Source: a virus
Taxonomy: Duplodnaviria > Caudoviricetes
Direction: 5' to 3' (one strand)
Virus record (IMG/VR): IMGVR_UViG_3300005330_000014
Span: 96,001-160,000 of that record
Length of the DNA stretch: 64,000 bases
In this document: positions 13,956 to 37,492 of the stretch, in pieces
Position numbering within the stretch: the stretch's first letter is position 1
Layout of the letters: each line of letters opens with the position of its first letter
The notes under the pieces: generated by a model
Database searches by the model: none
What the model was told of the DNA's origin: nothing
The model's input: only the letters and a program-made list of their open reading frames with translations
Position numbers and translations under genes: made by a program

Positions 13956-14669
13956 TTAAGCAACCATTTGCTTTACTTCTTCCAAAAATCTTTGGCTCAA
14001 TGCGTTAGTTTTATAAATCGCTTCGGGGTGCCATTGAACAAAATTAGCTCTGTGGTTTTCATTTTTAATCCATTCAATAATTTTAGGCAGTTTAAGGTCT
14101 TCTCCTAATAAAGCTGTACCTACAATTTCAACCCCATTAGGTAAATGATGTAACTCGCGTGTTAACGGGCGCAAAATACCCATATGGTGCGCGCTATTTA
14201 CGAAATAGTCTTCATGATCGACTTCCACGTAATGGCAAAATTCAGCTTCATCATCTTCTAGTTTAATCCCGGCCCCGCTAGGAGAATGACAAACCGTACT
14301 ACCGCCATAATTAATATCAGTTAGTGTCAATTTAAGGAAGTGAGAACAATATAATTGGAAATTACGACAAACGCCCGCGATTGGTTTGCCCAATTCAATG
14401 AACTTATTCATTAAGTAAATTTCACGAATGTCACGCTTACGATCAAAATTGTCCATATTTTCACATTTTAATAGTGGGCTGCCGTAAGTAGCGGGAAAAA
14501 TATCTCGTCCACCGCCGCCAAAATAAATATCCGCCCGCTCTGCCCAATAATCTAAATTGGCAGTATCGTCGTGAGTTACATATACATAATTCCAACCGAA
14601 ATACTTTTCAAGCATTTCATGAATATGTTTAGTGAAAATAGATGGACCGGTAGTTAGAGCGAGAGGCAT
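13956..14669 (-). CDS. class I glutamine amidotransferase / peptidase C26 (PuuD-like)
   Basis: GGGRDI, GVCRNFQ (catalytic Cys), VNSAHH, QWHPE (His-x-Glu). Confidence 0.88.
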   Translation of the reverse strand: MPLALTTGPSIFTKHIHEMLEKYFGWNYVYVTHDDTANLDYWAERADIYFGGGGRDIFPATYGSPLLKCENMDNFDRKRDIREIYLMNKFIELGKPIAGVCRNFQLYCSHFLKLTLTDINYGGSTVCHSPSGAGIKLEDDEAEFCHYVEVDHEDYFVNSAHHMGILRPLTRELHHLPNGVEIVGTALLGEDLKLPKIIEWIKNENHRANFVQWHPEAIYKTNALSQRFLEEVKQMVA

Positions 14670-14752
14670 ATAATTTAATTGTATGGTTGTTGCAGTTAGC
14701 TATTTAGTTGATTTTAGTTTATGTATTTAGAGAGTTAGGAAAGAAAAGATAT

Positions 14753-15649
14753 TCATCCAGCGTATTCGATTAATTTAGCATGTTTTTCGATAAAGTCAAG
14801 GTTTTCTTTCGAGTCTTCATTTTCTAAATTAAATTTCACACGAATTTTAGATACCTCGCACAAAAATAGAGCCTTATAATTATTGTTATAATCTTCTAAG
14901 TAGAAATATTGTGCGCCTAAGTCATGCGAAAAATTATCTCTGATTTGATCGACATTAATAGACCAAATTTGTTTGATTAATTCAATGTTATGGGTATAAA
15001 GTATTGAAGCTCGATATTTTTGGATAAATTTCTCTGGCGAGGTATATAATAGATTGTGATTATACACACTTCCTCTTTGTCGCTCACCCTCCCAGCGGTA
15101 CTTGACTAAGCCAGTAATAAAACTAGTCATCGCAGGGCTACTAATATAAATCGCGGGGCCGGTTAAGTGAAAAGCCGCCCATTCTTTAGTTTTTTCATCA
15201 CTTGTAATTATTGCGGTATATTCGGGGAATTCTTTAAAAATTAAATCTTCTGAGCAATCTAACAGAGATTTTAATTCATTAAGACGCGCGATTTCACTTT
15301 TAATTCTATCAATTTCAGAAGTTTTACAACAAACTAAAATATTAAGCTTAGAATAATCTGGCTGGAAATCCGTGCGCGTCTGAAATCCTTTTTCGTAATA
15401 ATAGTGAAAACTTTTAAATATTTCGGGATTATAAAAAATTGCGTTAAAAATGCCACGGCAAGAACGCGGCCAAAAATTATCAGTTACATTATTGATATCC
15501 AACCACGAAAACAATACTGGATTATAATTAGAATTCAAGGGAAATGTAGATGAACGACGCGCCGGATTATACTTAGTTATATTGTCTGAGTCAGAAATGT
15601 AAACACCTTTGAAAGTTGATTCAATTTTCTTTTTTAATTCTTCGTCCAT
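14753..15649 (-). CDS. hypothetical protein, possible distant member of the CRExF paralog family
   Basis: RSCRGIFN and SPAMTSFITGLVK loosely match the family motifs. Confidence 0.6.
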   Translation of the reverse strand: MDEELKKKIESTFKGVYISDSDNITKYNPARRSSTFPLNSNYNPVLFSWLDINNVTDNFWPRSCRGIFNAIFYNPEIFKSFHYYYEKGFQTRTDFQPDYSKLNILVCCKTSEIDRIKSEIARLNELKSLLDCSEDLIFKEFPEYTAIITSDEKTKEWAAFHLTGPAIYISSPAMTSFITGLVKYRWEGERQRGSVYNHNLLYTSPEKFIQKYRASILYTHNIELIKQIWSINVDQIRDNFSHDLGAQYFYLEDYNNNYKALFLCEVSKIRVKFNLENEDSKENLDFIEKHAKLIEYAG

Positions 15650-15751
15650 AATGATAAATGATTATATTAAGTTAATACTTAGTTATTTAGTTAAAGTTTT
15701 TGGAAGCCGCCGGATTCATTAGTAAAATAAACATCTTTGATGGAATAGTGA

Positions 15752-16147: not shown

Positions 16148-16184
16148 TTTTATTTAGTGTAAATATATAACAACACTACTATTT

Positions 16185-17231
16185 ATGATAATATATACCA
16201 AAGAATTAGCAAATCAACTTGTAGAGCTACAGAAAAATGTATCTTTTAAGGAAGCAAGAAAAATTTTAAATATCAGTTACTATCAAGCTAGGAAATTATT
16301 AATAAAATTTGGATTTAAAACCGTTCAAAAAAATAAGCCTTTAATCCCCATTCAAGAAAATTACTTTGAAATTATTGATACCGAAGATAAAGCTTATTTT
16401 TTGGGATTTATAGGGGCAGATGGGTGTATTAATGATAAACACGCTTTATCTATTCACTTACAAAAAGACGATCAGATTATTCTAAAGCAGTTTTTGCATT
16501 ATACAAATAGCCAACATACTATTAAATTCGGAAAAACTAAGAACACAACCAGTTCTTTTCCTGATTTTTTTGAGTGGGCTATGATTTATATCTCTAGGAA
16601 AAATTTCGTACAACATTTATTACAATTGAATATTACCCCTCGTAAGAGTCTCACATTAATTCCTCCGCCAGAAAATAGCATTCCCAATCATTTAATGCAT
16701 CACTTTATAAGAGGTTACTTCGATGGAGATGGCGGGGCTTATTTCAATAGTAACAGTAAAAACATTAAAGGCAAAACTTTATATCAATTTAATGGCTCTT
16801 TCACGGGAACCAAGGAAATGTTAACTTATATTGAGTCGTATTTACATCAACAAGAAATAAAAACTTCTTGGACCAAAAGAATGAAAGATAATTCAAACAA
16901 TTATACTTTATTGATACATGGTAATATACAGGGAACTAAACTATACGAATATATGTATCAAAATCATACAATATGTTTAGACCGTAAATTAATTCTATTT
17001 AAAAAATGTAAAGATATAGCAGAATCAGTTATTAACAATAGAACAAGTAAATATAGATTTATTACAAAATATCCTTCCATTAAGTCTCCTTGGTCTTATC
17101 AATTTAAAATTAATAAAAAGAAATATAGCGGATATGGAGCAACCGAAGAAGAATGCAAAAAGAATCTTAATGCAAAGTATTTGGAAATATCTGGAATAAA
17201 TTTAGGAGAGGGGCTGCGTAGCTTAATTTAA
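16185..17231 (+). mobile_element. free-standing LAGLIDADG homing endonuclease
   Basis: two motifs FLGFIGADG and FIRGYFDGDG; AP2-like C-terminus; only long plus-strand gene in the minus-strand arm. Confidence 0.9.
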
Positions 17232-17233
17232 TA

Positions 17234-17494: not shown

Positions 17495-17590
17495 AATTAT
17501 AGATTTTTATGTTACTAAATGACCAATTAGTTAATTTATTAATTTAGTTAAGTTAAATCTTGGGATAGAACCAAGAAATTAGTTAATTTG

Positions 17591-17965: not shown

Positions 17966-18022
17966 ATACTTATTATACTTATTGGTTTATTGGTTAGTTA
18001 CTTGGTTACTTGTTTGTTTTGT

Positions 18023-18880
18023 TTATTCTAGTGATTTTTCAAAATCTTCAACTACATGAGCAAATTTATTGAGTATTTTAGTTTGCATTTTAGGTGTAAG
18101 CAAAAAGAACGCGGAACTAAATTGACGATATTCTAAAGTGGTAAATCCTTTAGGTTCCTGCGAGTGATATTTCATTCGATAATCTCCTTTGACTGCAAAT
18201 TTAGTAGTTCTTAATTCCTCTTTTTCAGAAATGCCAGCGGGTAGACTTTCCGGGAAATAAGTATCATAAACTTTATCTAATTCTTTGATCAATTCATTAG
18301 TTTTGTCTGGTGCATAAATCCCTTCAAATATTTTTGAGGCAATTCTGTTGTCGCAAAATTTAATATGAATATGAAAGCCAGCCGAACGGAAAGTTACTTC
18401 CTTATTAGGTTTTTCGTATTTATACTTTGAATCAGGGGTTCTTTTACCCGTATAAGCATTATAAGTAGGCTTTTTACTGGAATAAACATTGCCCGGATCA
18501 ATAAATGAATATTCAGATTTATCTACATAAGGAGTTAATAAAGTTTCATAACCATACAAAGTAGTAAGATAATTACGCACAATTTTCAACCAATGATTTA
18601 GAGTATCTACAGCTAATCCCGATTTCATCGAAGCATGGCAAGCTATTTCTTTGCCAACAATTTCAAAAGCAGTCCCGTCCGCAATAATATTGAAAAGGTT
18701 GTTAGATTGCAGTACAGGATTAATATCCAAATCCATTGGCGCAAAGGGATTACCCTTATTTCCAAGTAACAATTTATCTGTTTGTAGATAATTCGCAATC
18801 AATTTAGTAGCATTGAATATCTGCTTTGGCTTTGAATTTGCCAAAAAGAATTCAATTTCAAATCCGTAGTTTAAGCTCAT
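18023..18880 (-). CDS. phiEco32-like COOH.NH2 ligase type 2 (divergent)
   Basis: YGFEIEF, ADGTAFEI, RSAGFHIHI, GDYRMK, LEYRQFS motifs. Confidence 0.75.
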   Translation of the reverse strand: MSLNYGFEIEFFLANSKPKQIFNATKLIANYLQTDKLLLGNKGNPFAPMDLDINPVLQSNNLFNIIADGTAFEIVGKEIACHASMKSGLAVDTLNHWLKIVRNYLTTLYGYETLLTPYVDKSEYSFIDPGNVYSSKKPTYNAYTGKRTPDSKYKYEKPNKEVTFRSAGFHIHIKFCDNRIASKIFEGIYAPDKTNELIKELDKVYDTYFPESLPAGISEKEELRTTKFAVKGDYRMKYHSQEPKGFTTLEYRQFSSAFFLLTPKMQTKILNKFAHVVEDFEKSLE

Positions 18881-18902
18881 AATATGAATTAGTTAATTTG
18901 TT

Positions 18903-19520
18903 TTATTGGACAGTTTCTGTATCTACAGCAGTTTCAGGCGGCTTAATTAGCCATTTAGTTAAAGATAAAGTGTCGGTGGGTTTCTTTTTGAAATAATTAA
19001 CAAAACCTCCAGCCTCCCATCCGCCCACGCCTAACGATTTAACTGTTTGCACAGTATAACCATCCATAAAATGTAGGATTGCCGGAATTACTTGCCGCGC
19101 CAAATCATACGCCTCCAAAGCCGCTACAAAGTTATCATTTGCATTGGCATAATAAACAGCCGCCGCGCGGAGGAATAAAGTAAACATACCCCGACGAACG
19201 GCACTACTCGCCCAAAATGGGGAAATTTCCAAAATAATACAATTTACAACATTCGTATTATAAATAACAATTCTTTCCTCTTCAGGAATATTTAATTTAA
19301 TTTCGCGGTTTCTGAAAAACTTATCGATTTTTTCGATATCAATCCCAGTTTTATTAAATCCAACAAATCTGGTATTTTTATTGAAAGAATAACCAAAACT
19401 TTCCCGGCAAGTAAAACATGCTCCGCCCTGATTTGTTTTAATAGAATAAGTAAAGAAAGCTCCTTGATTATAACCGTATGGAGCCACTGATTTTAAATGT
19501 AACGTTTCTTTGGAAATCAT
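18903..19520 (-). CDS. uncharacterised paralog family member (CRExF family)
   Basis: TCRESF, ISPFW, MFTLFLRAA, FMDGYT. Confidence 0.75.
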   Translation of the reverse strand: MISKETLHLKSVAPYGYNQGAFFTYSIKTNQGGACFTCRESFGYSFNKNTRFVGFNKTGIDIEKIDKFFRNREIKLNIPEEERIVIYNTNVVNCIILEISPFWASSAVRRGMFTLFLRAAAVYYANANDNFVAALEAYDLARQVIPAILHFMDGYTVQTVKSLGVGGWEAGGFVNYFKKKPTDTLSLTKWLIKPPETAVDTETVQ

Positions 19521-19589: not shown

Positions 19590-20255
19590 TTATTGATCAG
19601 TCGTTTTGCTTAAAAAAGCAGAGAAAATCTCCGGTAATCTATCACGGTTAGCACAATTAATTATTACATTACTAAATCTAGAAACAAACCTTGCTCCAGT
19701 TATCCCCATAGTATTTGGATCAAACGCCATTTTAGTAGGATGGATATTACCTTCCAAAAAGAACATGATTGCCGGGACTACTTGGGCGGCTAACGGATAA
19801 GCTTGTAACGCTTCCTCAAAATTTCCGCCGTGAGCCGTTTTTGGGTAGAAAATCGCCGCGCATCTCAAAAATAACGTAAATATTGCTTGAGTAATTATAT
19901 TCTGCATCCAGAACGGATCAATCTCCAAAACAATAAAATTAGGAATATCTGTTTTATAAATAACAATTTCTTGTATTTCAATTCCCGCTTTTCTCAATTT
20001 CGCCTCGCGGCGCATAAAAAACTGATTAACCTTTTTAATTCCTTCTTCTCCTAAATTTTTACTGTGCCATGCAATTCGTTTGATTTCTGGCTTTAAAAAT
20101 GAAGCAAAATTCTCGCGACAAGTGCATAAATGAATAATTCGACTATTATCATCCAGCATCATAAAATACCCGCCACTATAAGTATCTCCTTCCCGATTGA
20201 AGGTTTGGGCATAGTAACCATCATTAACTACTGGAATTACTTGGTCAGTTATCAT
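19590..20255 (-). CDS. uncharacterised paralog family member (CRExF family)
   Basis: TCRENF, IDPFW, IFTLFLRCA, FLEG; clear tandem paralog of 18903..19520. Confidence 0.75.
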   Translation of the reverse strand: MITDQVIPVVNDGYYAQTFNREGDTYSGGYFMMLDDNSRIIHLCTCRENFASFLKPEIKRIAWHSKNLGEEGIKKVNQFFMRREAKLRKAGIEIQEIVIYKTDIPNFIVLEIDPFWMQNIITQAIFTLFLRCAAIFYPKTAHGGNFEEALQAYPLAAQVVPAIMFFLEGNIHPTKMAFDPNTMGITGARFVSRFSNVIINCANRDRLPEIFSAFLSKTTDQ

Positions 20256-20448
20256 AATTCAATTTTAATTTAATGTTTGAGTATTTTTATTTTCTTGTTC
20301 TTAAGTTCTATGTTTCTACAACGTCTATAAATCTTATCAAGTCTTATAATTTCTGTACATGCAATGGTCGGTTTTCCATAATAAGGCCGCGCGATGAATC
20401 TGTCAAGAACTTTTTTCAAAAAGTTTTACTCTAGAAAATCGGGCGGAT

Positions 20449-22141: not shown

Positions 22142-22151
22142 AAGGTTTTTA

Positions 22152-22424: not shown

Positions 22425-22624
22425 AGGTAATTTAATTCTTGATAGCAAATTAATTAGTTAAACGAAAAGCCGCCGGGTATGGATATGATTGATAAGAGAG
22501 GGTCAACCATATTACCACGGCCCGGCGGATACTGTCAAGATTTATTTTTTAGAATTTTTCGATTTCTTTTTGGGATTTATTTTACTCGATTAAATCAACG
22601 AACTTCACTCATCTATCTTATTTG

Positions 22625-23068: not shown

Positions 23069-23389
23069 TTAATCTTTCAGTTTTTTTATTTTGTCGCTCG
23101 CAAACATATCTGTCAAAGGGTGATTATGTGTTCTATCTGATTTGTCTAAAATAATCATATTATTGTAAACATAATTTCTCATTTGGGCGTATTCTCTATC
23201 TGCGTCTCGATAAAAATATACTAAAGTTTTGCCGGTTGTACGACTCACGCTGGTAGATAAAATCTTAAAACCGCGCTCATTATTGTCCAGTAATAATTGA
23301 TAACTTCTAGGGCCGACTCCGATATCCCGCAAATCTTCTAGAGATAATGAAGGTTTAATCCTAAATTTTAATCCGGGTTTTAGGTTCAT
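23069..23389 (-). CDS. hypothetical protein with HNHPLTDMF motif
   Basis: motif at 23102-23128. Confidence 0.7.
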   Translation of the reverse strand: MNLKPGLKFRIKPSLSLEDLRDIGVGPRSYQLLLDNNERGFKILSTSVSRTTGKTLVYFYRDADREYAQMRNYVYNNMIILDKSDRTHNHPLTDMFASDKIKKLKD

Positions 23390-25138: not shown

Positions 25139-25172
25139 TTTATTCTTATTTAGTTTAGGTTTTAGTTTAAGT

Positions 25173-27281: not shown

Positions 27282-27689
27282 TTAACCTTTACACCAGTCG
27301 CCCGAGACAATTTTTTTATTTAAAATATGGGCAGGTAAGTCTCTTTTATTGTAAGAATAGATAGTCGCGGACACTTCTTGGTTTAATTCGGCAGAAAAGA
27401 TAGTAATTTCTTGCTTATTGTATCCCGCGCCCGCCTCCATTGAATCAATCGATTGCAAGGCTATAGGGTCAACTTCATGTAACTCGACTACTACTTGACC
27501 TTCTCCGGCGGCAATACACGGATAAAAACCAAGATTGTATAATTCAAATCCGTCCACTTTTAAGGTTTCAATATATTTTTGACCATTAAATCGTTGGAAG
27601 TTATATGTTTTATCACGGTTATTTGGGTCGCTAGGATTCCCGCGCCTCAAAGTGCCGTAAGACAAAATATAGTTAGTTTGTTTTTTCAT
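27282..27689 (-). CDS. gamma-glutamylcyclotransferase (AIG2/GGACT-like)
   Basis: LSYGTLRRG, LYNLGFYP, VVVELHEV, IDSMEAGAGY. Confidence 0.88.
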   Translation of the reverse strand: MKKQTNYILSYGTLRRGNPSDPNNRDKTYNFQRFNGQKYIETLKVDGFELYNLGFYPCIAAGEGQVVVELHEVDPIALQSIDSMEAGAGYNKQEITIFSAELNQEVSATIYSYNKRDLPAHILNKKIVSGDWCKG

Positions 27690-27697
27690 AAAAATTA

Positions 27698-27964
27698 CTA
27701 TTCAAAATCTCGATTTTCGGTTGATACATAATGCTTCATATATGTTTGGAAATCCGCCCGAGTCACGGCAGCCATATCAAAACAACAATCTTCCATAATT
27801 AAAAAATCTTCTTTGGTGTTATTAGTATAAATTCTGGCTACCGCTTCCTTCTCACTGATTTTTCTATACCACTTTCTATTGTATCGAAAATCGAACCCCT
27901 CGGGGATTGCTCCAATTAGCATTATCTCCGCGTGTTGAAATTTTCTAGTAACAAACGTACCCAT
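27698..27964 (-). CDS. small paralog (FRYxxxWxxK family)
   Basis: GFDFRYNRKWYRKI. Confidence 0.65.
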   Translation of the reverse strand: MGTFVTRKFQHAEIMLIGAIPEGFDFRYNRKWYRKISEKEAVARIYTNNTKEDFLIMEDCCFDMAAVTRADFQTYMKHYVSTENRDFE

Positions 27965-28000
27965 TATTAATTACGAGTTCTTAGTCGTTTATTTTAAGAA

Positions 28001-28207
28001 TTAATCTTTTTCAAGAACCGCTACCCGATGGCGGCAATTAAATTGTGTAATTGGTAAAAATAGCCATTTACAATCAGTATTGCGCCGCGTTTCTTGACAT
28101 AAATTAGTATCTAATTTTTCGTACCATCGACCATTATATCGGAATTCGCTTTTCGGATTAACCAATTCAAGCTGAACGACCATGAAATGTTTGAAACGCG
28201 AGCCCAT
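28001..28207 (-). CDS. small paralog (FRYxxxWxxK family)
   Basis: SEFRYNGRWYEKL. Confidence 0.65.
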   Translation of the reverse strand: MGSRFKHFMVVQLELVNPKSEFRYNGRWYEKLDTNLCQETRRNTDCKWLFLPITQFNCRHRVAVLEKD

Positions 28208-28238
28208 AAGATTTCTTAGATTTTCTTAATGTGCGTCT

Positions 28239-28266
28239 AAGATAGCACTGATTTTAGAAAAGTCAA
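28239..28266 (-). promoter_or_regulatory. sigma70-type promoter
   Basis: TTGACT-16 nt (ending TGC)-TATCTT. Confidence 0.62.
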
Positions 28267-28282
28267 AGTTTGTTTTTTAAAA

Positions 28283-28945
28283 TTAAACTGCTATGATAGC
28301 ACGATCAAAGCAATAATCCGTTAAGCTCCCTTCGATTAGTTTATTTACTAAATTTTGGCAATAAATCACCGCCGGATCATCTAATAACATGCATTCAGGA
28401 TGCGTCTGGATTCCCAACATATTGGTTTTTTTATAATAAACAATTTCTGGCTCAACGGGAGTATCCATTTCTTCCTGATCCCCGCCTTCGTGGTAAGGAG
28501 ATAAATTCTCTGCCCATCCAATAATTTTATAGTCATCAGGTGGTAAATTAAACGGCCATTGTAAATTATGGTGCGTTGAGATTAAATCAAATTCTTGACC
28601 ATCAAAAGTTTTAATATAATGATAAACTGGGTGCCTCATATGTTGCACTAATTTACCGCCAGATAGCACGCTTGCCCCTTGTGAGCTTCGACAAACGCCA
28701 ACAAATGGAATACCCTTTTTAATTACTTGATTAAACAATTCAAATTCATAAATATCCCGAGAAGGATTAGTAGAAACAAAAGGATGTTCTTGTTCTCCAT
28801 AATATTTAGGGGACCAATCTGATCCTCCGGTGCCTAAAACCAATTCCGCTTCATCAATATTATTCGTTAATTCAAAGCCCAATGGAAGAATCCATTTAGC
28901 ATCATGCGCGCCGCCATTAACAACGTATAATTTTCGTTTTTTCAT
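28283..28945 (-). CDS. class I glutamine amidotransferase / peptidase C26
   Basis: GTGGSDW, GVCRSSQ, STHH, QTHPE. Confidence 0.88.
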   Translation of the reverse strand: MKKRKLYVVNGGAHDAKWILPLGFELTNNIDEAELVLGTGGSDWSPKYYGEQEHPFVSTNPSRDIYEFELFNQVIKKGIPFVGVCRSSQGASVLSGGKLVQHMRHPVYHYIKTFDGQEFDLISTHHNLQWPFNLPPDDYKIIGWAENLSPYHEGGDQEEMDTPVEPEIVYYKKTNMLGIQTHPECMLLDDPAVIYCQNLVNKLIEGSLTDYCFDRAIIAV

Positions 28946-28965
28946 ATTCTTTATAAAGTTATTTA

Positions 28966-29409
28966 TTAATCTAAAATTTCCGTTTTTGGTTCATGAAAAG
29001 TAATTACATCAAAAGTTTGATCTTGTTTGATTAAGTAAGCTTTCAGCTTAAATTTCGGAACAATTACTAAATCATTTAAATTACTGGATAAATAACCAAA
29101 GATACGCCTTCTGTTTGGCCTTTTGTCATTTAAAAAAACTTCCATGAACATAAAACTATAGGCTCGGAACCAATGATTATTAAATCTAAAAATAGCCCCC
29201 TTTTGTAAATCCTTGACGGGCATTAATTCGTAATTACGTTGATTAACTCCAGCAGAAAATAACATAGAAATATTAATTATTGATAATAGGTTAAAAATGG
29301 CCGGTTTTACGTGTTTGCCGGTATGGGGTAGAAAGGATAACCACTGGAGAGAATGAAAAACTCCGGCGACACAATCCCCTTTTTTGTTGCTAACTAGGCA
29401 ACCAACCAA
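28966..29409 (-). CDS. hypothetical protein containing an FRFxxxW repeat unit
   Basis: GAIFRFNNHWFRA; true start uncertain. Confidence 0.5.
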   Translation of the reverse strand: MVGCLVSNKKGDCVAGVFHSLQWLSFLPHTGKHVKPAIFNLLSIINISMLFSAGVNQRNYELMPVKDLQKGAIFRFNNHWFRAYSFMFMEVFLNDKRPNRRRIFGYLSSNLNDLVIVPKFKLKAYLIKQDQTFDVITFHEPKTEILD

Positions 29410-30372
29410 CTAACTAACCAAATGTTTAGAGGAATTAGCTAATCCCCATTCAGAATAAACATCTAAATCTTTGACATCTCTTAGCTGATTTAAGCGAATA
29501 GTTAAGTGTTTTGGTAAATTCAAGGCAGCAACGATTTCTTCTGCAAGTCCCTTGTTGTTTTCAATAACGGCAGAACGCGCCATCTCTTTTTTAATTTTGA
29601 AAATAGATTTGTAATCATCATTAAAATAACGATTTACCGCTTCGGTAGCTAAATCATATATTAACGCAACCAATTTAGGAGAACTAATCCAGTAGTTAGA
29701 TAATAGTCTATATTCCAGTCCGGGATATTCAGGCTTAGGACGATGCGCCCCTAGATTACGACCATACAGAGTTTTGCGTTGCAATGAAGTAGTATCATTG
29801 TCCACCAAAACAAAAGGCACCGCCACAAAATAATCTAATAACTTAACTAAAGTAATGACACTATCAAAATCATTTAACGGCAAGCTTTTCTTTCTGTCTT
29901 GGTCGGCACGGGCAATTGCGAAATGTCCGCCCGCCGAGCGACGAGCACCACTAAAATCAGGCGGGATAATTTGGCATACGTCCCATGCATCATACTCAGG
30001 ATTACAACCAATTTTATTGGCTTCTGGGTGTTCCATGAAGCGTGGATCAAATTCATGACTAGCTTTAATTTTAATCTTAAACCGGCCTTCACTCTCTTTG
30101 ATTAAATAATCATTAATTAAACTTAATGACGAGCCAATACTTTTAATAAAATCTTCTTTAGAGGTTGCGGGGCGAACCGTAAATTCTCCCATTGTATTAT
30201 CATAATAAAGATTAGTATGTTCGTCCAACCGAATTGGATCATACTTGTCCACTTTAAGTACGTCAATTGCGCTCACAACATCTCCGCTTGAAACATCTTC
30301 AATAAAAAATTCAGGATCGGCCCCAAAAGTTAATGCGGTTGTTTTATTTACTAATTCATTTTTGCTTTTCAT
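29410..30372 (-). CDS. phiEco32-like COOH.NH2 ligase type 2
   Basis: TFGADPEFF, DNTMGEF, GCNPEYDAW, RSAGGH, LYG..GAHRPK, GLEYRLLSNYW. Confidence 0.9.
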   Translation of the reverse strand: MKSKNELVNKTTALTFGADPEFFIEDVSSGDVVSAIDVLKVDKYDPIRLDEHTNLYYDNTMGEFTVRPATSKEDFIKSIGSSLSLINDYLIKESEGRFKIKIKASHEFDPRFMEHPEANKIGCNPEYDAWDVCQIIPPDFSGARRSAGGHFAIARADQDRKKSLPLNDFDSVITLVKLLDYFVAVPFVLVDNDTTSLQRKTLYGRNLGAHRPKPEYPGLEYRLLSNYWISSPKLVALIYDLATEAVNRYFNDDYKSIFKIKKEMARSAVIENNKGLAEEIVAALNLPKHLTIRLNQLRDVKDLDVYSEWGLANSSKHLVS

Positions 30373-30418
30373 TTTTTCTCCTTGTTTGTTATTATCTCTA
30401 TTTTAGTTTATTTTAATA

Positions 30419-30709
30419 TTACGTGATTTTATGAGGTTTTTTATTTAATACACAAACCTTCTTATATACAGGAATGTTGTAATAAACATCTTCCGCCCTT
30501 TCTCTAGCATTAGGTTCGCGGCCCCAATTTTCTGATACTTTTATCATCCATTTTCTGTCATATCGAAACTCTGAACCTATTCTAATATCTTGGAATGACT
30601 CAAAAGAATAAACAGGGCTAAACAAATCTAAATATTGATATTCGGGCCACATTTGGTTTTTAATTATAATATCTGTCTGAATAGTTGTCCGAATTATTCT
30701 CGCGGTCAA
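30419..30709 (-). CDS. small paralog (FRYxxxWxxK family)
   Basis: IGSEFRYDRKWMIKV. Confidence 0.65.
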   Translation of the reverse strand: MTARIIRTTIQTDIIIKNQMWPEYQYLDLFSPVYSFESFQDIRIGSEFRYDRKWMIKVSENWGREPNARERAEDVYYNIPVYKKVCVLNKKPHKIT

Positions 30710-30857
30710 TATGCTTCATATAATTAGGCCGCATTGCTAAATAATTCATATATCTACAAAGATTAATGTCGGGATGTTTCTTTTTCTTAAATCGCACACA
30801 ATGTAGCAAATTAAATAAAAGAATAATCAGAATATAAATAACGAAATCGTTCATTTT

Positions 30858-32018
30858 TTATTCCTCCCAAGAATTAACTACTTCACTGTCATCAATTTCT
30901 AACATTTGGACTCGACGATTTCTGCCGCCAACTTGGACAATTCCTGAAACTACAAATTTCTTACCCATTTTAGTTACCCTTAAATTGGAAACATCAGGAA
31001 ATTCAAACGTTCGATGATTATTAGCATTATTATTAACTGGGGCAGCAACAGCCCGAGGTTGGACAGGAGGCGGAACGGCAACGCGAACAGGTTCAGGTGC
31101 CGGTGCTGGAGCGGCGCGAACTACTGGCGGCGGAGCTACGGGAGCAGGAGGGGCAGGAGCTACGCGGGCAGCTTGCGGGGCGACGACAGCGGCAGGAATA
31201 GCCGGAACAGGAGTAATAGCCGGGACCACTCTATTATTTAATACATCAGTAATTACTCTTGTATAATTTCTTAATGTGGTAGACTCTAGGTTATCCCCCA
31301 AACTAGAACAACTATTCAACTCTAGAACAACGCAATTCCGATTAGTTTCATTGTAACAAATATCTACGCTAGCTAGGTCTAACCCTAAAGCATTCATTGC
31401 TTTAATTGATTCAACTTTAACGCAATCGGGAAGCGTTACTCCTTCACGAGCGAAAATCCATTGACCATGATTTCTAATTTGATAATTAACTTCGGTGCCT
31501 TCTGGAAGGTCTGAGCGAACTTTCTTTTGAATATAATCGAAAATCTTAACTCCATCGCGGTCACGAATCATATGCACACGATATTCATGTTTCTTAGGAA
31601 AATACTTAACATATAATTGAGTGCGAGGACTTAATTGCGCCTCAGTTTCAGCGATAACTAATCCGGCGGCTGAATGTCCATTTAATATTTCCCGGCAAGC
31701 TACCTTGCTCCCCTCGCGAATCCATCGTGCAGCCACCGCGCGATCTTCTGTAAATTCAGGAATTGAAACATTAGCTTCTCTTAATTTAAGAAATGTTTTC
31801 TTTTTGCAAACAGCAATAGCAACGCTACGGGGGTTATTCAACCATCTAACGTTAGCATTATTCCAGACAGGCTGACCAGAAAAACCTAAATTAACAACTA
31901 AATGATTCGGATTATAAGTATAATCACCGTCAGAACGAACACGGGGACAATTTAATGATTGAGCGAGTAAACGGCCCGCTGTAGATGTTGGCTTGTATGC
32001 AATAACGCGTGGATTCAT
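30858..32018 (-). CDS. ATP-grasp (RimK-like) ligase with Pro/Ala-rich linker and small C-terminal domain
   Basis: CKKKTF, GHSAAG loop, HEYRVH, IRN, ALGLDLASVDI, VLELNS; low-complexity linker at 31038-31229. Confidence 0.85.
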   Translation of the reverse strand: MNPRVIAYKPTSTAGRLLAQSLNCPRVRSDGDYTYNPNHLVVNLGFSGQPVWNNANVRWLNNPRSVAIAVCKKKTFLKLREANVSIPEFTEDRAVAARWIREGSKVACREILNGHSAAGLVIAETEAQLSPRTQLYVKYFPKKHEYRVHMIRDRDGVKIFDYIQKKVRSDLPEGTEVNYQIRNHGQWIFAREGVTLPDCVKVESIKAMNALGLDLASVDICYNETNRNCVVLELNSCSSLGDNLESTTLRNYTRVITDVLNNRVVPAITPVPAIPAAVVAPQAARVAPAPPAPVAPPPVVRAAPAPAPEPVRVAVPPPVQPRAVAAPVNNNANNHRTFEFPDVSNLRVTKMGKKFVVSGIVQVGGRNRRVQMLEIDDSEVVNSWEE

Positions 32019-32056
32019 AATATTTATTACTTGTTAGTTTTTGATTTAGTTGTTAG

Positions 32057-33133
32057 TTATTTCTCGGTTTCTTTATTCATTTGTTCAGCTAAGATTTCAC
32101 CTATAGACGTATTCAAAACGTTTGGATTTGAAGGAGGTAGCAATAAAAGTGGTTGCCCATCATTATCTAGTTTTAATTTTTCAGGATTTAAATCTAATTC
32201 TTTTTGAGTTATTTCATGATCGAAAACCTCAACATATTCCAATTTTTCGTTCTCTAAATCGTGAGAATATTTCAGCCGAGCAGTTAGTCTTATTTGGTCC
32301 GGCACAGTCTCTAACTCTCTTATGATATATTTTCTAATTAGTTTCTTGATTCCTTTATGATGTTTTTTGTATAACCATACAAGTTGGCTAATGGATAATT
32401 CGCGCGAATAAGGATCGTCCCACAACACATATTTTTTTTTTATAGAATCCAAATCTCCCAATAGTGACATTTCAGACATTCTGTGGGCAACAACTTCTTG
32501 AATCGGCCCTTGATATTTAAATGTCTTTTTAGTTCTAGAAAATGATTGCGATGGCAAATATGCTGTTTTTTGCTTAAGTGGTGCGGGCATCCAAATCTTA
32601 TTACTATGCCATACTGTTTTTTCTTCATTCCAATGACCTAAAGACTCATTAAAAATATAAAACTCTCCTTTATTATCTAATATTACCATCTTGGAAGAAT
32701 TAATATATCTTTCAATTAATTTTTTGAACCACCATGTAGTATAAGCTTCTATGTCTCCAGCAAGTATTTTTCGTAGAATAATGTTATTAAAAACATAAGT
32801 GTCACTATGTTCTCCTTTGAAATCCAAATCCGATATTGTTCCATTAAAAGCAAAACATACGTTATCATTAATAGAAAATGGATGTAAGTTTTCAGGGATA
32901 ATATGCCCGGACGAACATTTTCTAAAATGAACTAAAATAGGACACCCTGCTGGGATTAATGAGTAAAATTCATGAAAAGCTTTTAAATCTTTGTCAAAAT
33001 CTTTTCTAATAAACAATTGATTATCTTGCATATAAGCAATACCTAATCCATCATTATTTATTTTATAGATACTTTCAAAGGTTTCAAAAGTTTCCCGCTG
33101 AGAGTTAGGTTTATTTACGATAATAAGGCACAT
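32057..33133 (-). CDS. class II (Ntn) glutamine amidotransferase
   Basis: N-terminal MC, NNDGLG, HFRKCSSG, LHPF, FNGTI, SDT. Confidence 0.85.
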   Translation of the reverse strand: MCLIIVNKPNSQRETFETFESIYKINNDGLGIAYMQDNQLFIRKDFDKDLKAFHEFYSLIPAGCPILVHFRKCSSGHIIPENLHPFSINDNVCFAFNGTISDLDFKGEHSDTYVFNNIILRKILAGDIEAYTTWWFKKLIERYINSSKMVILDNKGEFYIFNESLGHWNEEKTVWHSNKIWMPAPLKQKTAYLPSQSFSRTKKTFKYQGPIQEVVAHRMSEMSLLGDLDSIKKKYVLWDDPYSRELSISQLVWLYKKHHKGIKKLIRKYIIRELETVPDQIRLTARLKYSHDLENEKLEYVEVFDHEITQKELDLNPEKLKLDNDGQPLLLLPPSNPNVLNTSIGEILAEQMNKETEK

Positions 33134-33160
33134 TGGTAGTGGTGGTTAATTATGGAAATC

Positions 33161-33188
33161 AGACTAGCATCAAAAAGAGGAAAGTCAA
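33161..33188 (-). promoter_or_regulatory. sigma70-type promoter (near-duplicate of 37541-37568)
   Basis: TTGACT-16 nt (ending TGC)-TAGTCT. Confidence 0.7.
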
Positions 33189-33236
33189 ATTTTCGTTTTT
33201 AGGTGAATTTTTTAATTTAATGACTTAATTATTTAG

Positions 33237-33437
33237 TTATTTGAGATGAAAACTTAATGTCATCACGCTTTCTTTTCGAGGAAACTGGGTAGGGTTGGCC
33301 CACGTTTTGTCTCCAACGAATTTTACTGCAAAATCATCATTCGTTTTAAGCCAAGTGTCTTCTAGAGCGCGGAATTTACCATTAATTTTAATAGCCTCAA
33401 AAATTGAAAGCGTCCATTTTCGTTTGACATTTGACAT
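33237..33437 (-). CDS. small hypothetical protein
   Basis: 66-aa ORF. Confidence 0.45.
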   Translation of the reverse strand: MSNVKRKWTLSIFEAIKINGKFRALEDTWLKTNDDFAVKFVGDKTWANPTQFPRKESVMTLSFHLK

Positions 33438-33468
33438 AAAATATAATATTATTTCTCGATACTTGTAT

Positions 33469-34308
33469 TTATATCATGTCCCCGATTTCAATCGATGCGA
33501 TTTCTGAATCTTCCAATAAGCCTTTTAAAAAAACTCCACGCTCTCTAGTGTTATAAGTAAATGGGACTATCTTATTTATTTTTCTAGGAAAAACCTGATC
33601 TAAATCCGCCTTTTTCTCTTTAATAGCCAAATCATAGCAAGGATAACAATGTTTTTTACCATTATACATGTGTCCGTTGCCGTAACCAACGAAAGGCTGC
33701 CCGCATTTTTCGCATTTATCCTTGGGAGGAATAACATAGCTAGGAGTTGAATTATATTTGAATAAACTAATATTTTCGGAGGTTCTAATTCCTTTCCCTC
33801 CACATTCCCACCAGTCCATAACCGGATTAAAAAAGTTAAACTTTCCGTCGTTATTCATTATTACGAAACGGCTGGATGTAGGTAACACTTTTTCCACTAA
33901 AAATTTAAAATAATCAGAACTAGCAGCGGACTTATTACAAAATCCTTTCAATAAGATTAATAAATTAATTGCGTGGCAATATTCAGGTTTATTAAGACTT
34001 GCTTTCATGTCCCAAATACGACCAGTCTGAGCCATAACTAAATCTTGGTCTATACGATACGGGCCACAAAAACCTTTGGTATTTTTTTCTGTGTAAGGTT
34101 CTTTAGCTATATCAATTAAACAAGAATGAGTTTTATTCTGTTCGTATAATTTAAGCAAGGAGTCGAATTGCTTGAAGTTTTTACGAATATATATTTTTCC
34201 ATTTTTAGCTACCGCAATACCATATAAATCCGCCCGCTCATTCTTCATTTTTTCTATTAAAATTTCTGGCAACTCAATATCGGCAGGCTTACAAATTAGA
34301 ATACTCAT
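33469..34308 (-). CDS. degenerate class II glutamine amidotransferase-like protein with C-terminal zinc finger
   Basis: MSILICKP start (Cys replaced), DLYGIA, VIMNNDGKF; CEKC...CYPC. Confidence 0.65.
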   Translation of the reverse strand: MSILICKPADIELPEILIEKMKNERADLYGIAVAKNGKIYIRKNFKQFDSLLKLYEQNKTHSCLIDIAKEPYTEKNTKGFCGPYRIDQDLVMAQTGRIWDMKASLNKPEYCHAINLLILLKGFCNKSAASSDYFKFLVEKVLPTSSRFVIMNNDGKFNFFNPVMDWWECGGKGIRTSENISLFKYNSTPSYVIPPKDKCEKCGQPFVGYGNGHMYNGKKHCYPCYDLAIKEKKADLDQVFPRKINKIVPFTYNTRERGVFLKGLLEDSEIASIEIGDMI

Positions 34309-34364
34309 AAAAACAAATAATATATTTCAATAATTTTAAGTTAATTTTTAACTACATACCAATA

Positions 34365-34931
34365 CTAATCGCGGAATCTCATATTCATATAGTCATATTC
34401 TTCATCAGGATCATAATGTTTATATGGTTTGCCATAAATACCATAATGAATTCCATTATAAATATATTTACTATATAAATGGTAAAAAGTAAATTCTCCA
34501 TTATTATTTAACAAAGCGATTGGAACTACTTTAGATATTGCTTCATCTAATAAATATCCAAAATTAGTTTGAGTAGGGTCTTTAGTAAGCTTACAAAACT
34601 TATCCAATAACGCAGATATGTTTAATAGATCAATACTATCTTTTGAATCAAACACAACCGAGTATTTGCCGTGGCAAAAGAAAATTGGCTCAACCTCTCT
34701 TTTGACAATACTAATCAAGGCTGCATAATTTTCCTTGTTAAGCCAATCAATTGTTTTTACTAATTCTCTGACTGAAGAGATTTTAATAAATCCTAGCGTT
34801 GATTTTTCGGAGCAATAAGCATATACAATATATATAAAATAATTGCCAATTGTTTGGTTATTTTTGGTTTCGATATTTTCTAAAATATCATCGAAATCTA
34901 ATTCAGCATTTTTTACTTTTGCTATAAACAT
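34365..34931 (-). CDS. highly degenerate class II GATase-like paralog
   Basis: IALLNNNGEFTFY parallels VILDNKGEFYIF and ALLDNEGKIEII in neighbours; no N-terminal nucleophile. Confidence 0.5.
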   Translation of the reverse strand: MFIAKVKNAELDFDDILENIETKNNQTIGNYFIYIVYAYCSEKSTLGFIKISSVRELVKTIDWLNKENYAALISIVKREVEPIFFCHGKYSVVFDSKDSIDLLNISALLDKFCKLTKDPTQTNFGYLLDEAISKVVPIALLNNNGEFTFYHLYSKYIYNGIHYGIYGKPYKHYDPDEEYDYMNMRFRD

Positions 34932-34971
34932 AAGTTTAGGTTTAAAATTTTAGTTTAAATCTTAAACTATA

Positions 34972-36582
34972 CTATTTAATAGCTTGATTGTAAGTTTTAG
35001 TATAAAAAGACTTAAATTCGTCGTTGGCATCGAAAAACTTATATAAGTAAGGATAATCTTGTCTGTTTTTGCAAACAAATTCATAGAAGAACACCCAGCT
35101 TGCCATATCTTTAATCGAAGCATTACCGGGGCGGCAGAAATCGCACAAAGAGGCCACGAAATCTATGTTTTTCAATAACTCATTTTTGTCTTTAGTTGAT
35201 CTGAAAATTCTAAATTCTACTGTTTGACCGTTGCTAGATTCAAAATTCACAGCAGTTCTATGATCGAATTTAAGTCTAATAACTTCCCCAGCCCCAGAAA
35301 CGATATGCCCATTTTTAAATTGGAGGCCGCGAGTTGTAGTAAAGTCACTAAACATATTTGCTTTACGACCGGCCATAATCTCAATAAATTGTCTATTGTT
35401 GGGGTTATGAATAAACGTCATTAATTTAGAGGCGGCAAGACCATAACCGCTCTGCCCTAGAGTTTTACCGTACCAATCATCTCCATGAGTTAAAGCATTT
35501 TTACTAATATGAATATGGCACCCGCAGCCCGTTCCCCGATCAGCCCCTTGTTGGGGAGGTTGATAAGGAGCGCAATAAATACTATCATTATTTAATATAG
35601 CCTCAAAGAAACTATTCCACGCTTCGCGATGATATTTAATATCAGCGGGGCAAGAAACCACTTCAAATCCCATTTGTAATGTGCCATCCCTCTTAATAAT
35701 AGCTTTTAATTCGCTCTTTTTAATTACTTCATCGGCATCAATCAAACCGCGACCATAATTGTCTCTAACTTCGTATTCTAATTCTACTCCAATTAATTTT
35801 GGATGTACTCCGCTTGCCGTAACAGAAAAAGAGTTAATATCTTTATCACCGAAAGCGGCTTTTGTAATCTCGCTAACTAATTTATTAGAAGAATCGCTAA
35901 TATGTTCTTTAAAATGGCGCTCGCTTCTATCAGTATAGGCTTTCAGAATAATTCTAGAAGCATTTCCCTGACAATTACCGCAAAATCCTTTATAAAAGTT
36001 TTTAGAATTTTCAAAGTTATGCTGACAGTATTTACATGTAACAATCTTTTTTGCATCAAAACAAGATTTGCAGCAATTACCAGAATTTCCATTATTTAAA
36101 ATAAAAGGAACATAAGAAGATAAACTATTTACTGTTATCTTTTTTTCACATAAACTGCATTTCATATCTAAGCTTGAATCTAAACTTGAATCTTCGGTTT
36201 CAGTTACCGTGAAATAACTATTACCATAAATTGATACGGAGGGATTAATAGGTCTACGTAAAGGATGTTTAATCTCATTATTACTTTCATCAGAACAATC
36301 TTCCTCTTGAGAGTCTGCCCTTTTTTCCGAAACTTTAGGGGCTCGTGTTTTAATTACTTTGCTCCCTCTAACTACTGAATTATATTTAATTGGACGAGGC
36401 TCTTTCGGGGCAGACGCCTTAGCATAACTCAATTCTTCGTTCTGAGCCGGAATAGATTTCTTTAATTCTCCTCTCTTTGTTTCTAATTCCTCAATGCGCT
36501 CGCGAAAACTTCTCGATGCAGTCTCGACGTAAGGCTTTACGGTAATAGAAGGTTTTGATTCGATATTTTTTTCTTCAGACAT
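34972..36582 (-). CDS. putative amidoligase (COOH.NH2 ligase superfamily) with N-terminal Cys-rich region
   Basis: IGVELEYE, KRDGTL..GFEVVS, GCGCHIHIS, AVN, TVEFRIF; four CxxC pairs upstream. Confidence 0.88.
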   Translation of the reverse strand: MSEEKNIESKPSITVKPYVETASRSFRERIEELETKRGELKKSIPAQNEELSYAKASAPKEPRPIKYNSVVRGSKVIKTRAPKVSEKRADSQEEDCSDESNNEIKHPLRRPINPSVSIYGNSYFTVTETEDSSLDSSLDMKCSLCEKKITVNSLSSYVPFILNNGNSGNCCKSCFDAKKIVTCKYCQHNFENSKNFYKGFCGNCQGNASRIILKAYTDRSERHFKEHISDSSNKLVSEITKAAFGDKDINSFSVTASGVHPKLIGVELEYEVRDNYGRGLIDADEVIKKSELKAIIKRDGTLQMGFEVVSCPADIKYHREAWNSFFEAILNNDSIYCAPYQPPQQGADRGTGCGCHIHISKNALTHGDDWYGKTLGQSGYGLAASKLMTFIHNPNNRQFIEIMAGRKANMFSDFTTTRGLQFKNGHIVSGAGEVIRLKFDHRTAVNFESSNGQTVEFRIFRSTKDKNELLKNIDFVASLCDFCRPGNASIKDMASWVFFYEFVCKNRQDYPYLYKFFDANDEFKSFYTKTYNQAIK

Positions 36583-36628
36583 ATAATTTAATGGTTAATA
36601 ATTTTGTTTGACTTAGTTTTATTGAGTT

Positions 36629-37492
36629 TTATTTACTTGTCGCGTTGATAGTATCTAAATAATGATCTACCTCTTCGAGTTCATCAGCGGGGATTTCTTC
36701 TAAATTAACAAAATCTTCTGCTTCAGATTCTAAACGTAATGTTTCTGCCATGCGGTCTGCGGCATCTAGTTCATTTTCAATATCTACTACATTATCTTCA
36801 TTACTGTCATGCTCTGGAAAATCAGGGTCCACCGGATGATTAACTATTCTAATTAGTCCGCCGCCCGTTCCGCTATTTTGCCTATGAGGATTAGGGCCAA
36901 AATAACTATTATTTATATTATTATTTGTAAATCTTTCTTTAATTTCTTTATAATATCCGTTAGATGCCCAAATTACTCCTTCTTCGATCCATTCCCCGCT
37001 TTCCTCATTAATTATTTCGATTTTTCCCTCGTTATCTAATAAGGCTAATTTATTTCCTTTCCCAATGGCATTTTTAACAAACCACAAAAAACCTTTATTT
37101 CTCCACCATTTCCTTTTCGGGTTATCATTATCAAAACCTTTTAGGATAATTTCTCCAAATCCAAAGGTATCGCTCATTCCAGCAAATTTAGAACTAAAAT
37201 AATGTAAAACTCCATTATGGCAAAAATGCAAACGGTCTGAAATTACAAACGGGTGGCAATTAGCTTCATTTTTGGCTCCACTGGTGGCAAATCGGGCGTG
37301 GACGATAATTGGACAACCAATAGTTTTTTTGTAAGCTTCATACAATGAAGCAAAATCAAAAAATCCTTTTTCTATATGAATAGCCCCATCTTTAAAATAA
37401 GAGAAGCCCGCTCCATCTCCGTTTGAATTAACAATGTTTTCCAGAAATTCCGCCGGTAGTTCTTTTCCAGTCGATGTTAGAATAGTACACAT
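36629..37492 (-). CDS. class II (Ntn) glutamine amidotransferase
   Basis: N-terminal MC, NGDGAG, HARFATSG, CHPF, HNGVL, SDT. Confidence 0.9.
   Translation of the reverse strand: MCTILTSTGKELPAEFLENIVNSNGDGAGFSYFKDGAIHIEKGFFDFASLYEAYKKTIGCPIIVHARFATSGAKNEANCHPFVISDRLHFCHNGVLHYFSSKFAGMSDTFGFGEIILKGFDNDNPKRKWWRNKGFLWFVKNAIGKGNKLALLDNEGKIEIINEESGEWIEEGVIWASNGYYKEIKERFTNNNINNSYFGPNPHRQNSGTGGGLIRIVNHPVDPDFPEHDSNEDNVVDIENELDAADRMAETLRLESEAEDFVNLEEIPADELEEVDHYLDTINATSK

Follow-up and report, generated by a model that had tools for sequence, protein, structure and literature searches.

An enlarged jumbo-phage version of the phiEco32-type gamma-glutamyl amide operon

The DNA analyzed here, referred to as the window, comprises 64,000 nucleotides (bases 96,001 to 160,000) of a single 208,233-bp viral contig, IMG/VR record IMGVR_UViG_3300005330_000014, which has a CheckV completeness of 95%. 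Its GC content is about 33%, and the public sequencing runs that contain its DNA are rhizosphere and soil metagenomes. Nearly all genes are on the minus strand from about 39.5 kb to the left end of the window and on the plus strand from 39.9 kb onward; the switch is a divergent region adjoining a gene for a sigma-like protein. Within the minus-strand arm lies a cluster of enzymes of amide-bond chemistry (Table 1; genes are named by their first coordinate): three ligases of the glutamine synthetase (GS) fold (29410, 34972 and 18023), one RimK-like ATP-grasp ligase (30858), two class I glutamine amidotransferases (GATases) of the C26 family (28283 and 13956), one gamma-glutamylamine cyclotransferase (GGACT; 27282), and four class II GATase paralogs, of which 36629 and 32057 are of active type and 33469 and 34365 are degenerate. 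All of the cluster enzymes are on the minus strand, and every gene named in an initial annotation of this DNA proved to be an intact minus-strand open reading frame (ORF) in its assigned place. Catalytic residues are complete in all of them except the two conserved dead class II copies. The cluster represents the phiEco32/LUZ24/RIO-1 "gamma-glutamyl amide operon" in an enlarged form carried by a jumbo phage. Indeed, the initial annotation had already recognized a phiEco32-type cassette larger than the podophage form, which in phages CW02 and HP1 consists of single copies. For comparison we used related loci (designated L004, L006 and so on), which are large uncultured contigs of up to 224 kb bearing homologs of 34972 or 18023.

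Table 1. Positions of the cluster genes and associated features in the window, in core order where applicable (aa, amino acids; AF2, AlphaFold2; Ntn, N-terminal nucleophile)
Feature	Position	Strand	Description
GATII-A, class II (Ntn) glutamine amidotransferase-like, active type	36629-37492	-	287 aa; first core gene
GS-fold Amidoligase_2-like ligase	34972-36582	-	536 aa; homologs, motifs, AF2 fold
F188, truncated dead class II GATase paralog	34365-34931	-	188 aa
GATII-B, conserved pseudo-amidotransferase	33469-34308	-	279 aa
Small beta-barrel member 1	33237-33437	-	66 aa; jackhmmer and hmmsearch
GATII-C, active-type class II GATase-like	32057-33133	-	358 aa; directly upstream of ATP-grasp
RimK-like ATP-grasp ligase	30858-32018	-	386 aa; phrog_2599, profile match to RimK/ArgX structures
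Small beta-barrel member 2	30419-30709	-	96 aa; syntenic upstream of COOH-NH2 ligase in L010, L011, L012
COOH-NH2 ligase type 2 (GCS2-like)	29410-30372	-	320 aa; PF14395, phrog_3815
Small beta-barrel member 3	28966-29409	-	147-aa ORF, true start maybe further downstream; hmmsearch 2.9e-22
Class I GATase/Peptidase C26	28283-28945	-	220 aa; PF07722, phrog_7218
Small beta-barrel member 4	28001-28207	-	68 aa; family searches
Small beta-barrel member 5	27698-27964	-	88 aa, C-terminus ...RDFE; family searches
Gamma-glutamyl(amine) cyclotransferase, AIG2/GGACT fold	27282-27689	-	135 aa; last core gene
Third GS-fold carboxylate-amine ligase	18023-18880	-	285 aa; no Pfam model; motifs and AF2 fold
Second C26 class I GATase	13956-14669	-	237 aa; PF07722 at 4.6e-15; system membership uncertain
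Promoter-like motif TTGACTTT-N10-RTGCTA	37545-37568	-	Upstream of GATII-A
Further exact copies of TTGACTTT-N10-RTGCTA	39541-39564, 33165-33188, 28243-28266, 14776-14799	-	Exact match
Homing endonuclease, window	16185-17231	+
Homing endonucleases, related loci	L010 10948-12039, 13880-14860; L011 8387-9481, 13128-13916; L012 7793-8812

The amidoligase 34972 has a disordered N-terminus, a zinc-ribbon module with four CxxC motifs (about 35971-36159) and a catalytic domain (about 34972-35940). Its direct match to PF12224, at 13.8 bits, is under the curated cut-off; of its 25 homologs, the distant ones, matched at E values of 5e-29 to 1e-4, carry PF12224. The ligase motifs G-x-E-x-E, H-x-H and E-x-R are all kept and invariant, the conserved positions being G265, E267, E269, D299, E307, H356, H358, R406, E456 and R458. 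The AF2 model is confident over residues 136-536, and its fold matches YbdK, glutamine synthetase, PafA, Dop and GmaS (gamma-glutamylmethylamide synthetase). Homologs, motifs and GS/YbdK-like fold together identify 34972 as a second ligase of the PF12224 type. A scan of IMG/VR with this single protein gave no match, and a complex prediction pairing its residues 136-536 with GATII-A (score 0.25, mark 0.34) carries no weight either way.

The COOH-NH2 ligase 29410 matches PF14395 at 1.1e-11 (44.9 bits against a cut-off of 25) and phrog_3815 at 1.3e-43, and its residues E21, H150, E220 and R222 are invariant; its superfamily placement is by sequence only. Homologs occur in 308 phage records, with identities of about 30-34% to the cassette ligases, and orthologs in L010, L011 and L012 are 49-57% identical. 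The initial annotation had assigned 18023, about 8.4 kb downstream of the core, to the same type-2 family. Its identity as a GS-fold ligase stands: G6, E8, E10, D68, E73, R165, H170, H172, R224, E250 and R252 are invariant in 12 homologs, and the AF2 model (pLDDT 85.8) matches glutamine synthetases with TMq values of 0.39-0.48 and a probability of 1.0. The family label fits less well, with phrog_3815 matched at 8.8e-6 and a weak hhalign link to the 29410 family (probability 22%, E 9.5e-4). No Pfam model matches 18023 even at E values up to 1, and no match to its family was found among 50,697 phage records. In view of this weak link to PF14395, 18023 is best placed in a family of its own within the GS/GCS superfamily. 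It belongs to the system because its homologs sit inside the cluster in two relatives, with the COOH-NH2 ligase to one side and C26 to the other in L012, and adjoining the COOH-NH2 ligase in L013.

The fourth ligase, 30858, matches phrog_2599 at 1.5e-51 and has invariant D219, E233 and N235. By tblastn it is 33-42% identical to the cassette ATP-grasps of CW02, HP1, CVT22 and others, in 234 phage records, and the family extends to 6,411 cluster representatives. A profile of five orthologs matches RimK (7qys, 5zct and 4iwx) and ArgX (3vpb) structures with E values of 2e-4 to 1e-3, and the Asp and Glu-x-Asn metal ligands align with those structures. Pfam does not recognize this ATP-grasp, since the RimK model PF08443 matches nothing in the whole genome, not even 30858; in a search of the genome with the ATP-grasp profile, 30858 was the sole match. 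A scan of IMG/VR with the single protein returned just one distant podophage-like contig. The ATP-grasp core (about 31230-32018) is followed by a Pro/Ala/Val linker of about 60-70 residues and then by a C-terminal domain of about 55 residues, which ends in aromatic and acidic residues (linker and domain together, about 30858-31229). The possibility that this domain is a relative of the small beta-barrel proteins of the cluster was discarded when hhalign showed no relation. A hidden Markov model (HMM) of the domain had zero matches in the podophage loci or elsewhere in the window genome, and a word-based homolog search with it recovered the query alone. No degenerate active site was found in any of the four ligases; all carry invariant motifs and are catalytically intact by that measure.

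Among the class II GATases, GATII-A starts Met-Cys, and C2, R67, N93-G94 and D108 are invariant across 11 homologs. Its profile matches the glutaminase domains of GlmS and PurF at 1e-5, and the protein itself matches GATase_4 at 6.2e-5; in L004, L006, L008 and L009 the gene immediately upstream of the amidoligase is its ortholog. GATII-C, a paralog of 36629 (phmmer 1.7e-26), also starts Met-Cys and keeps all of the catalytic residues; both proteins retain the residues aligning to GlmS Cys1, Arg73, Asn98-Gly99 and Asp123. GATII-B is paralogous to both (phmmer 1e-8 to 4e-10), with Ser in place of Cys2 and the equivalents of R67, H80, N93 and D108 gone in the window, L004, L006 and L008. F188 aligns with the GATII family from residue 2 (hhalign 95.5%, E 1.5e-8); at that position it has Phe or Ile for Cys in four phages and Ser in L009, and it is syntenic in L004, L006, L008 and L012. 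The class II glutamine site is therefore present in 36629 and 32057 and missing from 33469 and 34365, and we file the latter two as degenerate paralogs, not enzymes, because they lack these residues. The residue alignment of the four paralogs thus bears out the count of two intact and two degenerate copies made in the initial annotation.

Of the two C26 proteins, 28283 matches PF07722 at 6e-15 and phrog_7218 at 2e-26, with Cys85, His182 and Glu184 invariant, and its orthologs follow the ligase in L010, L011, L012 and L013. The triad is also intact in 13956, which is 25% identical to 28283. Both keep Cys-His-Glu in G-x-C-x-G and H-P-E contexts, and their Pfam scores are over the cut-off. The cyclotransferase 27282 matches PF06094 at 2.4e-16 (60.8 bits) and has the YGTLR motif and invariant E69 and E85, and its orthologs lie downstream of C26 in L010, L012 and L013. 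Overall, the family assignments of the initial annotation, offered pending HMM confirmation, are upheld by Pfam and PHROGs for 29410, 13956, 28283, 27282 and 30858, whereas the class II GATases and PF12224 on 34972 score under the cut-offs.

Core order is kept in at least four related contigs (L004/L011, L006/L010, L008 and L012), at protein identities of about 30-57%: GATII-A, amidoligase, the 188-aa dead paralog, GATII-B, a small protein, GATII-C, ATP-grasp, small proteins, COOH-NH2 ligase, small proteins, C26 and GGACT. L013, from a different lineage, has a cluster with two C26 genes, Amidoligase_2, GGACT, a COOH-NH2 ligase and the 18023 homolog, and in L009 the amidoligase and the active GATase are both multiplied. 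Extra genes encode a Peptidase_M19 dipeptidase and a second RimK in L004/L011 and a peptide deformylase in L012, additions that fit peptide metabolism. The co-occurrence across related phages on which the initial annotation depended is thus borne out by synteny. A megablast search of the core against the 50,697 phage records gave no match. Profiles of seven cluster families found zero further copies outside the region in the 208-kb genome, so that the clustering is far beyond chance. Genes for LAGLIDADG and other homing endonucleases, on the opposite strand, occupy differing positions in or beside the cluster from phage to phage (Table 1), and the cluster seems to be a favored landing site for them.

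The initial annotation had presented about 24 kb, from 13956 to 37492, as one system. This holds for the 10.2-kb core (27282-37492) together with 18023, which we take as the conserved unit; for the span as a whole it is overstated, because about 13 kb of it is unrelated filler and 13956 is weakly tied. Between 13956 and 27282 there are about 25 other genes, including those for a dCMP deaminase, YopX, a plus-strand LAGLIDADG endonuclease and paralog families without known relatives. A stricter view, to which we give an even chance, is that 13956 serves the nearby salvage genes and that the intervening genes are unrelated early genes, leaving 27282-37492 and 18023 as the unit. The dCMP deaminase, endonuclease, YopX and many family-less proteins of the interval agree with this, as does the situation of 13956: its neighbors are Prs-like and NAPRTase-family genes, and the clusters of the relatives hold weak paralogs of it and no close ortholog. 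Against it, 13956 bears the same promoter-like motif as the core blocks, the L013 cluster contains two C26 genes, and homologs of 24491 and 23715 come after GGACT in L012 too, so that part of the filler is itself syntenic. The ties of 13956 to the cluster are paralogy and that common motif alone, and its membership is uncertain. Four minus-strand paralogs in the filler (18903-19520, 19590-20255, 24491-25216 and 26183-26902; 205-241 aa) have no family assignment, and 14753 (298 aa) gave no family match in Pfam- and PHROGs-type searches and no usable Atlas model.

The promoter-like motif, TTGACTTT-N10-RTGCTA, can be read as a -35 element followed by an extended -10. The window has five exact copies on the minus strand, where 1.6 would be expected with up to two mismatches allowed, and the 208-kb genome has seven in total; the five lie upstream of 38556, 36629, 32057, 28001 and 13956. 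The copies inside the core divide it into three units under the same signal. The "early-type promoters" of the initial annotation could be checked in part: this motif, concentrated here, supplies candidate promoters, which may or may not be early, and counts from the generic sigma-70 and terminator scans were no higher than in shuffled sequence. A second promoter-like class, at 20378-20406 and 22509-22538 on the minus strand, consists of TTGACA, a GC-rich spacer of the CCGCGCGG/CCGCCGGG type, and then TATTAT or TAATAT. These sites occupy the two longest intergenic gaps of the filler region, and the GC palindrome of the window genome may be part of promoter spacers.

Interleaved with the core enzymes are the five small beta-barrel proteins, which have in common a core of about 55 residues containing F-R-Y-x-x-K/R-W and occur nowhere else in the genome. 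Four of five related loci examined have three to six copies at matching places, and the cut locus L008 has one; copies of member 1 lie between GATII-B and GATII-C in L008, L010, L011 and L012. The family is absent from the podophage-type loci. An Atlas structure search with 27698 pointed to small barrels like the elongation factor P N-domain and KOW, at TM of about 0.5, a match that may serve as a lead only.

Several neighbors of the cluster were noted. The 323-aa product of 38556-39527 (-), whose gene stands upstream of the cluster behind a copy of the promoter-like motif, has homologs in the corresponding position of L006, L008 and L009. HD-domain phosphohydrolases are matched by its Atlas model (TM up to 0.86 by target), and L004 has a PDEase_I gene nearby; on this predicted structure, 38556 may be a nucleotide or cyclic-nucleotide phosphohydrolase. 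Three small minus-strand proteins (37636-38052, 26926-27240 and 23069-23389) have a common HNHPLT(D/T)MF near the C-terminus, and two of them flank the core, one just upstream of GATII-A and another just downstream of GGACT. The D-M-F ending is reminiscent of QADMF, the peptide by which Pol III alpha binds the beta clamp. The sigma-70-like protein at the divergent point (39946-40821, +) has weak region 2 and region 4 matches; L004 and L009 have sigma-like genes at this position too, and in CW02 a gene of this kind is found close to the cassette. At 9980-13797 (-), a NAPRTase-family protein (517 aa, 1.6e-34) is grouped with a 300-aa protein bearing a nucleoside 2-deoxyribosyltransferase-like domain and a ribose-phosphate pyrophosphokinase-like (Prs-like) protein (phrog_619 at 4.6e-76). 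This group looks like a phage module for salvage or reconstitution of NAD+ and phosphoribosyl pyrophosphate, and resembles the phage NAD-reconstitution pathways proposed as counter-defence. Other genes, at 2214-8449 (-) and 45769-47733 (+), encode a DUF7277/DUF7275 protein, an RNA ligase, a TPM-domain protein, LemA and a B12-dependent ribonucleotide reductase.

What might this set of enzymes make? By inspection of their N-termini, the cluster enzymes have no signal peptides and so should act in the cytoplasm after infection. We think it probable, with some reserve, that they constitute a cytoplasmic pathway in which a glutamate-based amide or peptide is built and trimmed on a soluble acceptor, either a small molecule or a cell-wall precursor. 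Each ligase would activate a carboxylate as an acyl-phosphate and join it to an amine, so that several amide bonds could be formed in an ATP-dependent manner, the product being a short glutamate-based amide or peptide on that acceptor. The two active-type class II GATases, 36629 before 34972 and 32057 before 30858, would hydrolyze glutamine and feed the ammonia to the adjacent ligase; alternatively, they might cleave gamma-glutamyl amides in the manner of EgtC/YafJ-type enzymes. The C26 proteins (PuuD/GGH-type) and GGACT would remove or recycle gamma-glutamyl groups, and the two dead amidotransferase paralogs and five small beta-barrel proteins could be non-catalytic subunits or adaptors. Indeed, the conserved pseudoenzymes hint at a multi-subunit complex. 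By analogy of folds, the enzyme set as a whole fits a parallel with the gamma-glutamyl (glutathione) cycle, with which the M19 dipeptidase of one relative agrees.

Several points weigh against this proposal. All of the chemistry past family level is inferred, because the members of the cassette lack a known substrate or product in any phage. With the Pfam scores of the class II GATases and of PF12224 on 34972 below the curated cut-offs, these assignments rest on profiles, transitive homology and predicted folds. The amidoligase zinc ribbons and the tethered, acidic-tailed domain of the ATP-grasp would fit a macromolecular target, whether protein or nucleic acid, no less well than a small molecule. 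A role in nucleotide or DNA modification, prompted by the nucleotide genes and zinc ribbons, turned up no specific evidence in work that did not include a dedicated pursuit of it.

The C-terminal extension of 30858 bears most directly on the main rival, in which the substrate is a protein or carrier tail. The RimK/LysX-like ATP-grasp would act on a protein C-terminus, either that of its own tethered domain or the tails of the small beta-barrel proteins, and the other ligases, amidotransferases and hydrolases would extend, amidate or trim the attached group, much as RimK acts on S6, TTL on tubulin, LysX on LysW and PafA/Dop on Pup. The closest solved relatives of the ATP-grasp, RimK and ArgX, both ligate onto a C-terminal Glu of a protein, and the amidoligase fold also matches PafA and Dop. 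Among 13 domain-bearing ATP-grasp sequences (5 locus orthologs and 8 library representatives), 10 end in an aromatic and acidic tail, in variants such as WEE, FWED, FWQD, WYQDVD, WAEQEND, HFQDEE and WAKEE; the podophage ATP-grasps, of about 250 aa, have no such extension. The small proteins are restricted to the cluster, and several copies in the relatives have acidic tails with a Trp near the end. However, the tail pattern is short and missing from the other three domain-bearing sequences, most of the window's own small proteins are without acidic tails, no LysW, Pup or S6 homology was found, and the podophage cassette works without the C-terminal domain. On these grounds we consider a protein or carrier tail an unlikely target, if the most serious competitor. 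A more specific and more doubtful proposal is a carrier-based assembly line, in which the Pro/Ala-tethered domain would be a built-in swinging arm with LysW-like logic. The product would be built on its terminal carboxylate, the neighboring enzymes would amidate and trim it, and the dead GATases and small proteins would be docking subunits. If true, the acceptor of a cassette found in hundreds of phages would at last have a name.

The apparent absence of signal peptides would place the enzymes in the same compartment as the cell-wall precursors, which suits a third reading, that residues are added to, or amidated on, free carboxylates of these precursors and later phages are thereby blocked (superinfection exclusion). 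It counts for this reading that peptidoglycan stem peptides include a D-Glu in gamma linkage and that GATase-dependent enzymes such as MurT/GatD and LtsA amidate their carboxylates. The family scans detected neither a Mur-ligase, transpeptidase or flippase nor a peptidoglycan-binding domain in the cluster or its surroundings. The hypothesis, the standing one in the literature, has been stated for the podophage cassette (PMC5498523, PMC10580990), credited there to Iyer and co-workers (Iyer et al. 2009 in PMC10580990); no experiment in any phage backs it, and nothing in the cluster adds support. We would place its probability below that of a protein or carrier tail and above that of the assembly line.

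The hydrolytic members of the cluster raise a fourth reading, of catabolism or salvage: C26, the Cys-Ntn proteins, GGACT and M19 would degrade host glutathione, gamma-glutamyl-polyamines or folyl-polyglutamates, and the ligases would re-route the pieces, the purpose being release of amino acids or disarming of a host molecule. The parallel with the gamma-glutamyl cycle (GCS-like ligase, ATP-grasp, cyclotransferase, and the Peptidase_M19 of L004) can be read this way too, the C26 family includes gamma-glutamyl hydrolase and PuuD, and the cluster adjoins nucleotide and NAD salvage genes. However, catabolism alone does not readily account for four intact ATP-dependent ligases, and M19 is found in just one relative. 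Of the readings set out here we find this the least probable, and a biosynthetic pathway on a soluble acceptor remains our preferred one. An answer could decide between metabolite synthesis, cell-wall alteration and protein tagging, and the possible tethered acceptor domain, the third ligase family and the cluster-restricted small-protein family are new handles on the product of the cassette.

The closest known system is the cassette of the phiEco32/LUZ24/RIO-1 podophages. It has been named the "gamma-glutamyl amide linkage operon" (Hardies et al. 2013, as cited in PMC4819975) and the "peptidoglycan modification cassette" (PMC5498523), and PMC10580990 traces its prediction to a 2009 paper of Iyer, Abhiman, Burroughs and Aravind. 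In the literature searched, neither its product nor its target was found to have been identified. Both systems have a PF14395 ligase, an Amidoligase_2-type ligase, a RimK-like ATP-grasp, a class II GATase, C26 and gamma-glutamylcyclotransferase (GGCT), and in both the genes are co-oriented in the non-structural arm beside a sigma-like factor gene. Salinivibrio phage CW02 and Pseudoalteromonas phage HP1 each have one GATase II, COOH-NH2 ligase, amidoligase, ATP-grasp and GGCT, and CW02 additionally has one class I GATase. Small beta-barrel-like proteins are interleaved in the podophage cassette as well (CW02 gp1, 4, 6, 7, 11, 13, 14 and 17), although the family in the window is a different one, restricted to the cluster. 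The eight SH3-like small proteins of CW02 (L017, 2-7801) finish alike, in L-x-P-x-(L/I)-L-E-(E/D)-N and one last aliphatic residue; no mention of this common tail was found in the cassette literature searched. The podophage cassettes reside in genomes of 45-77 kb, against 208 kb here, and have one long GATase II in place of four class II paralogs, two of them conserved pseudoenzymes. What is new in the window cluster, besides these pseudo-amidotransferases and a second C26 gene, is the third GS-fold ligase family (18023), the five small beta-barrels, the zinc-ribbon module of the amidoligase, the Pro/Ala linker and acidic-tailed domain that extend the ATP-grasp, and the promoter-like motif.

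A smaller system, a two-gene module of Amidoligase_2 and a short GATase, occurs in the OM43 phages MEP401/402 and the Marvin-like mycobacteriophages (PMC10580990). Among deposited phage genomes, these phages provide the sole matches to 36629 and 34972, and the pair is adjacent in MEP402. There, however, the pair stands alone, whereas in the window it leads a block of about 16 genes and the ligase has an N-terminal extension of about 215 residues.

For the ATP-grasp, the best sequence relatives of known structure are RimK and the LysX-ArgX enzymes (7qys, 5zct, 4iwx and 3vpb), which ligate onto the C-terminal Glu of a protein. The window differs in having no S6 or LysW homolog, the putative acceptor being the fused domain. 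With neither a LysW-like protein nor downstream Lys/Arg enzymes in the window scans, a LysW carrier system as such is not present, and the likeness is one of logic alone, an aromatic-acidic C-terminal tail combined with a RimK/ArgX-like ligase.

The gamma-glutamyl (glutathione) cycle and the Puu and Egt enzymes comprise GCS, glutathione synthetase, GGCT, PuuD (a C26 enzyme) and EgtC (a class II amidohydrolase). The cluster enzymes differ from these in showing no orthology to the cellular proteins, and fold analogy is what would link them to substrates of this kind. Nonetheless, the folds of the two sets match one for one: GCS2-like ligase, ATP-grasp, C26, Ntn amidohydrolase and cyclotransferase.

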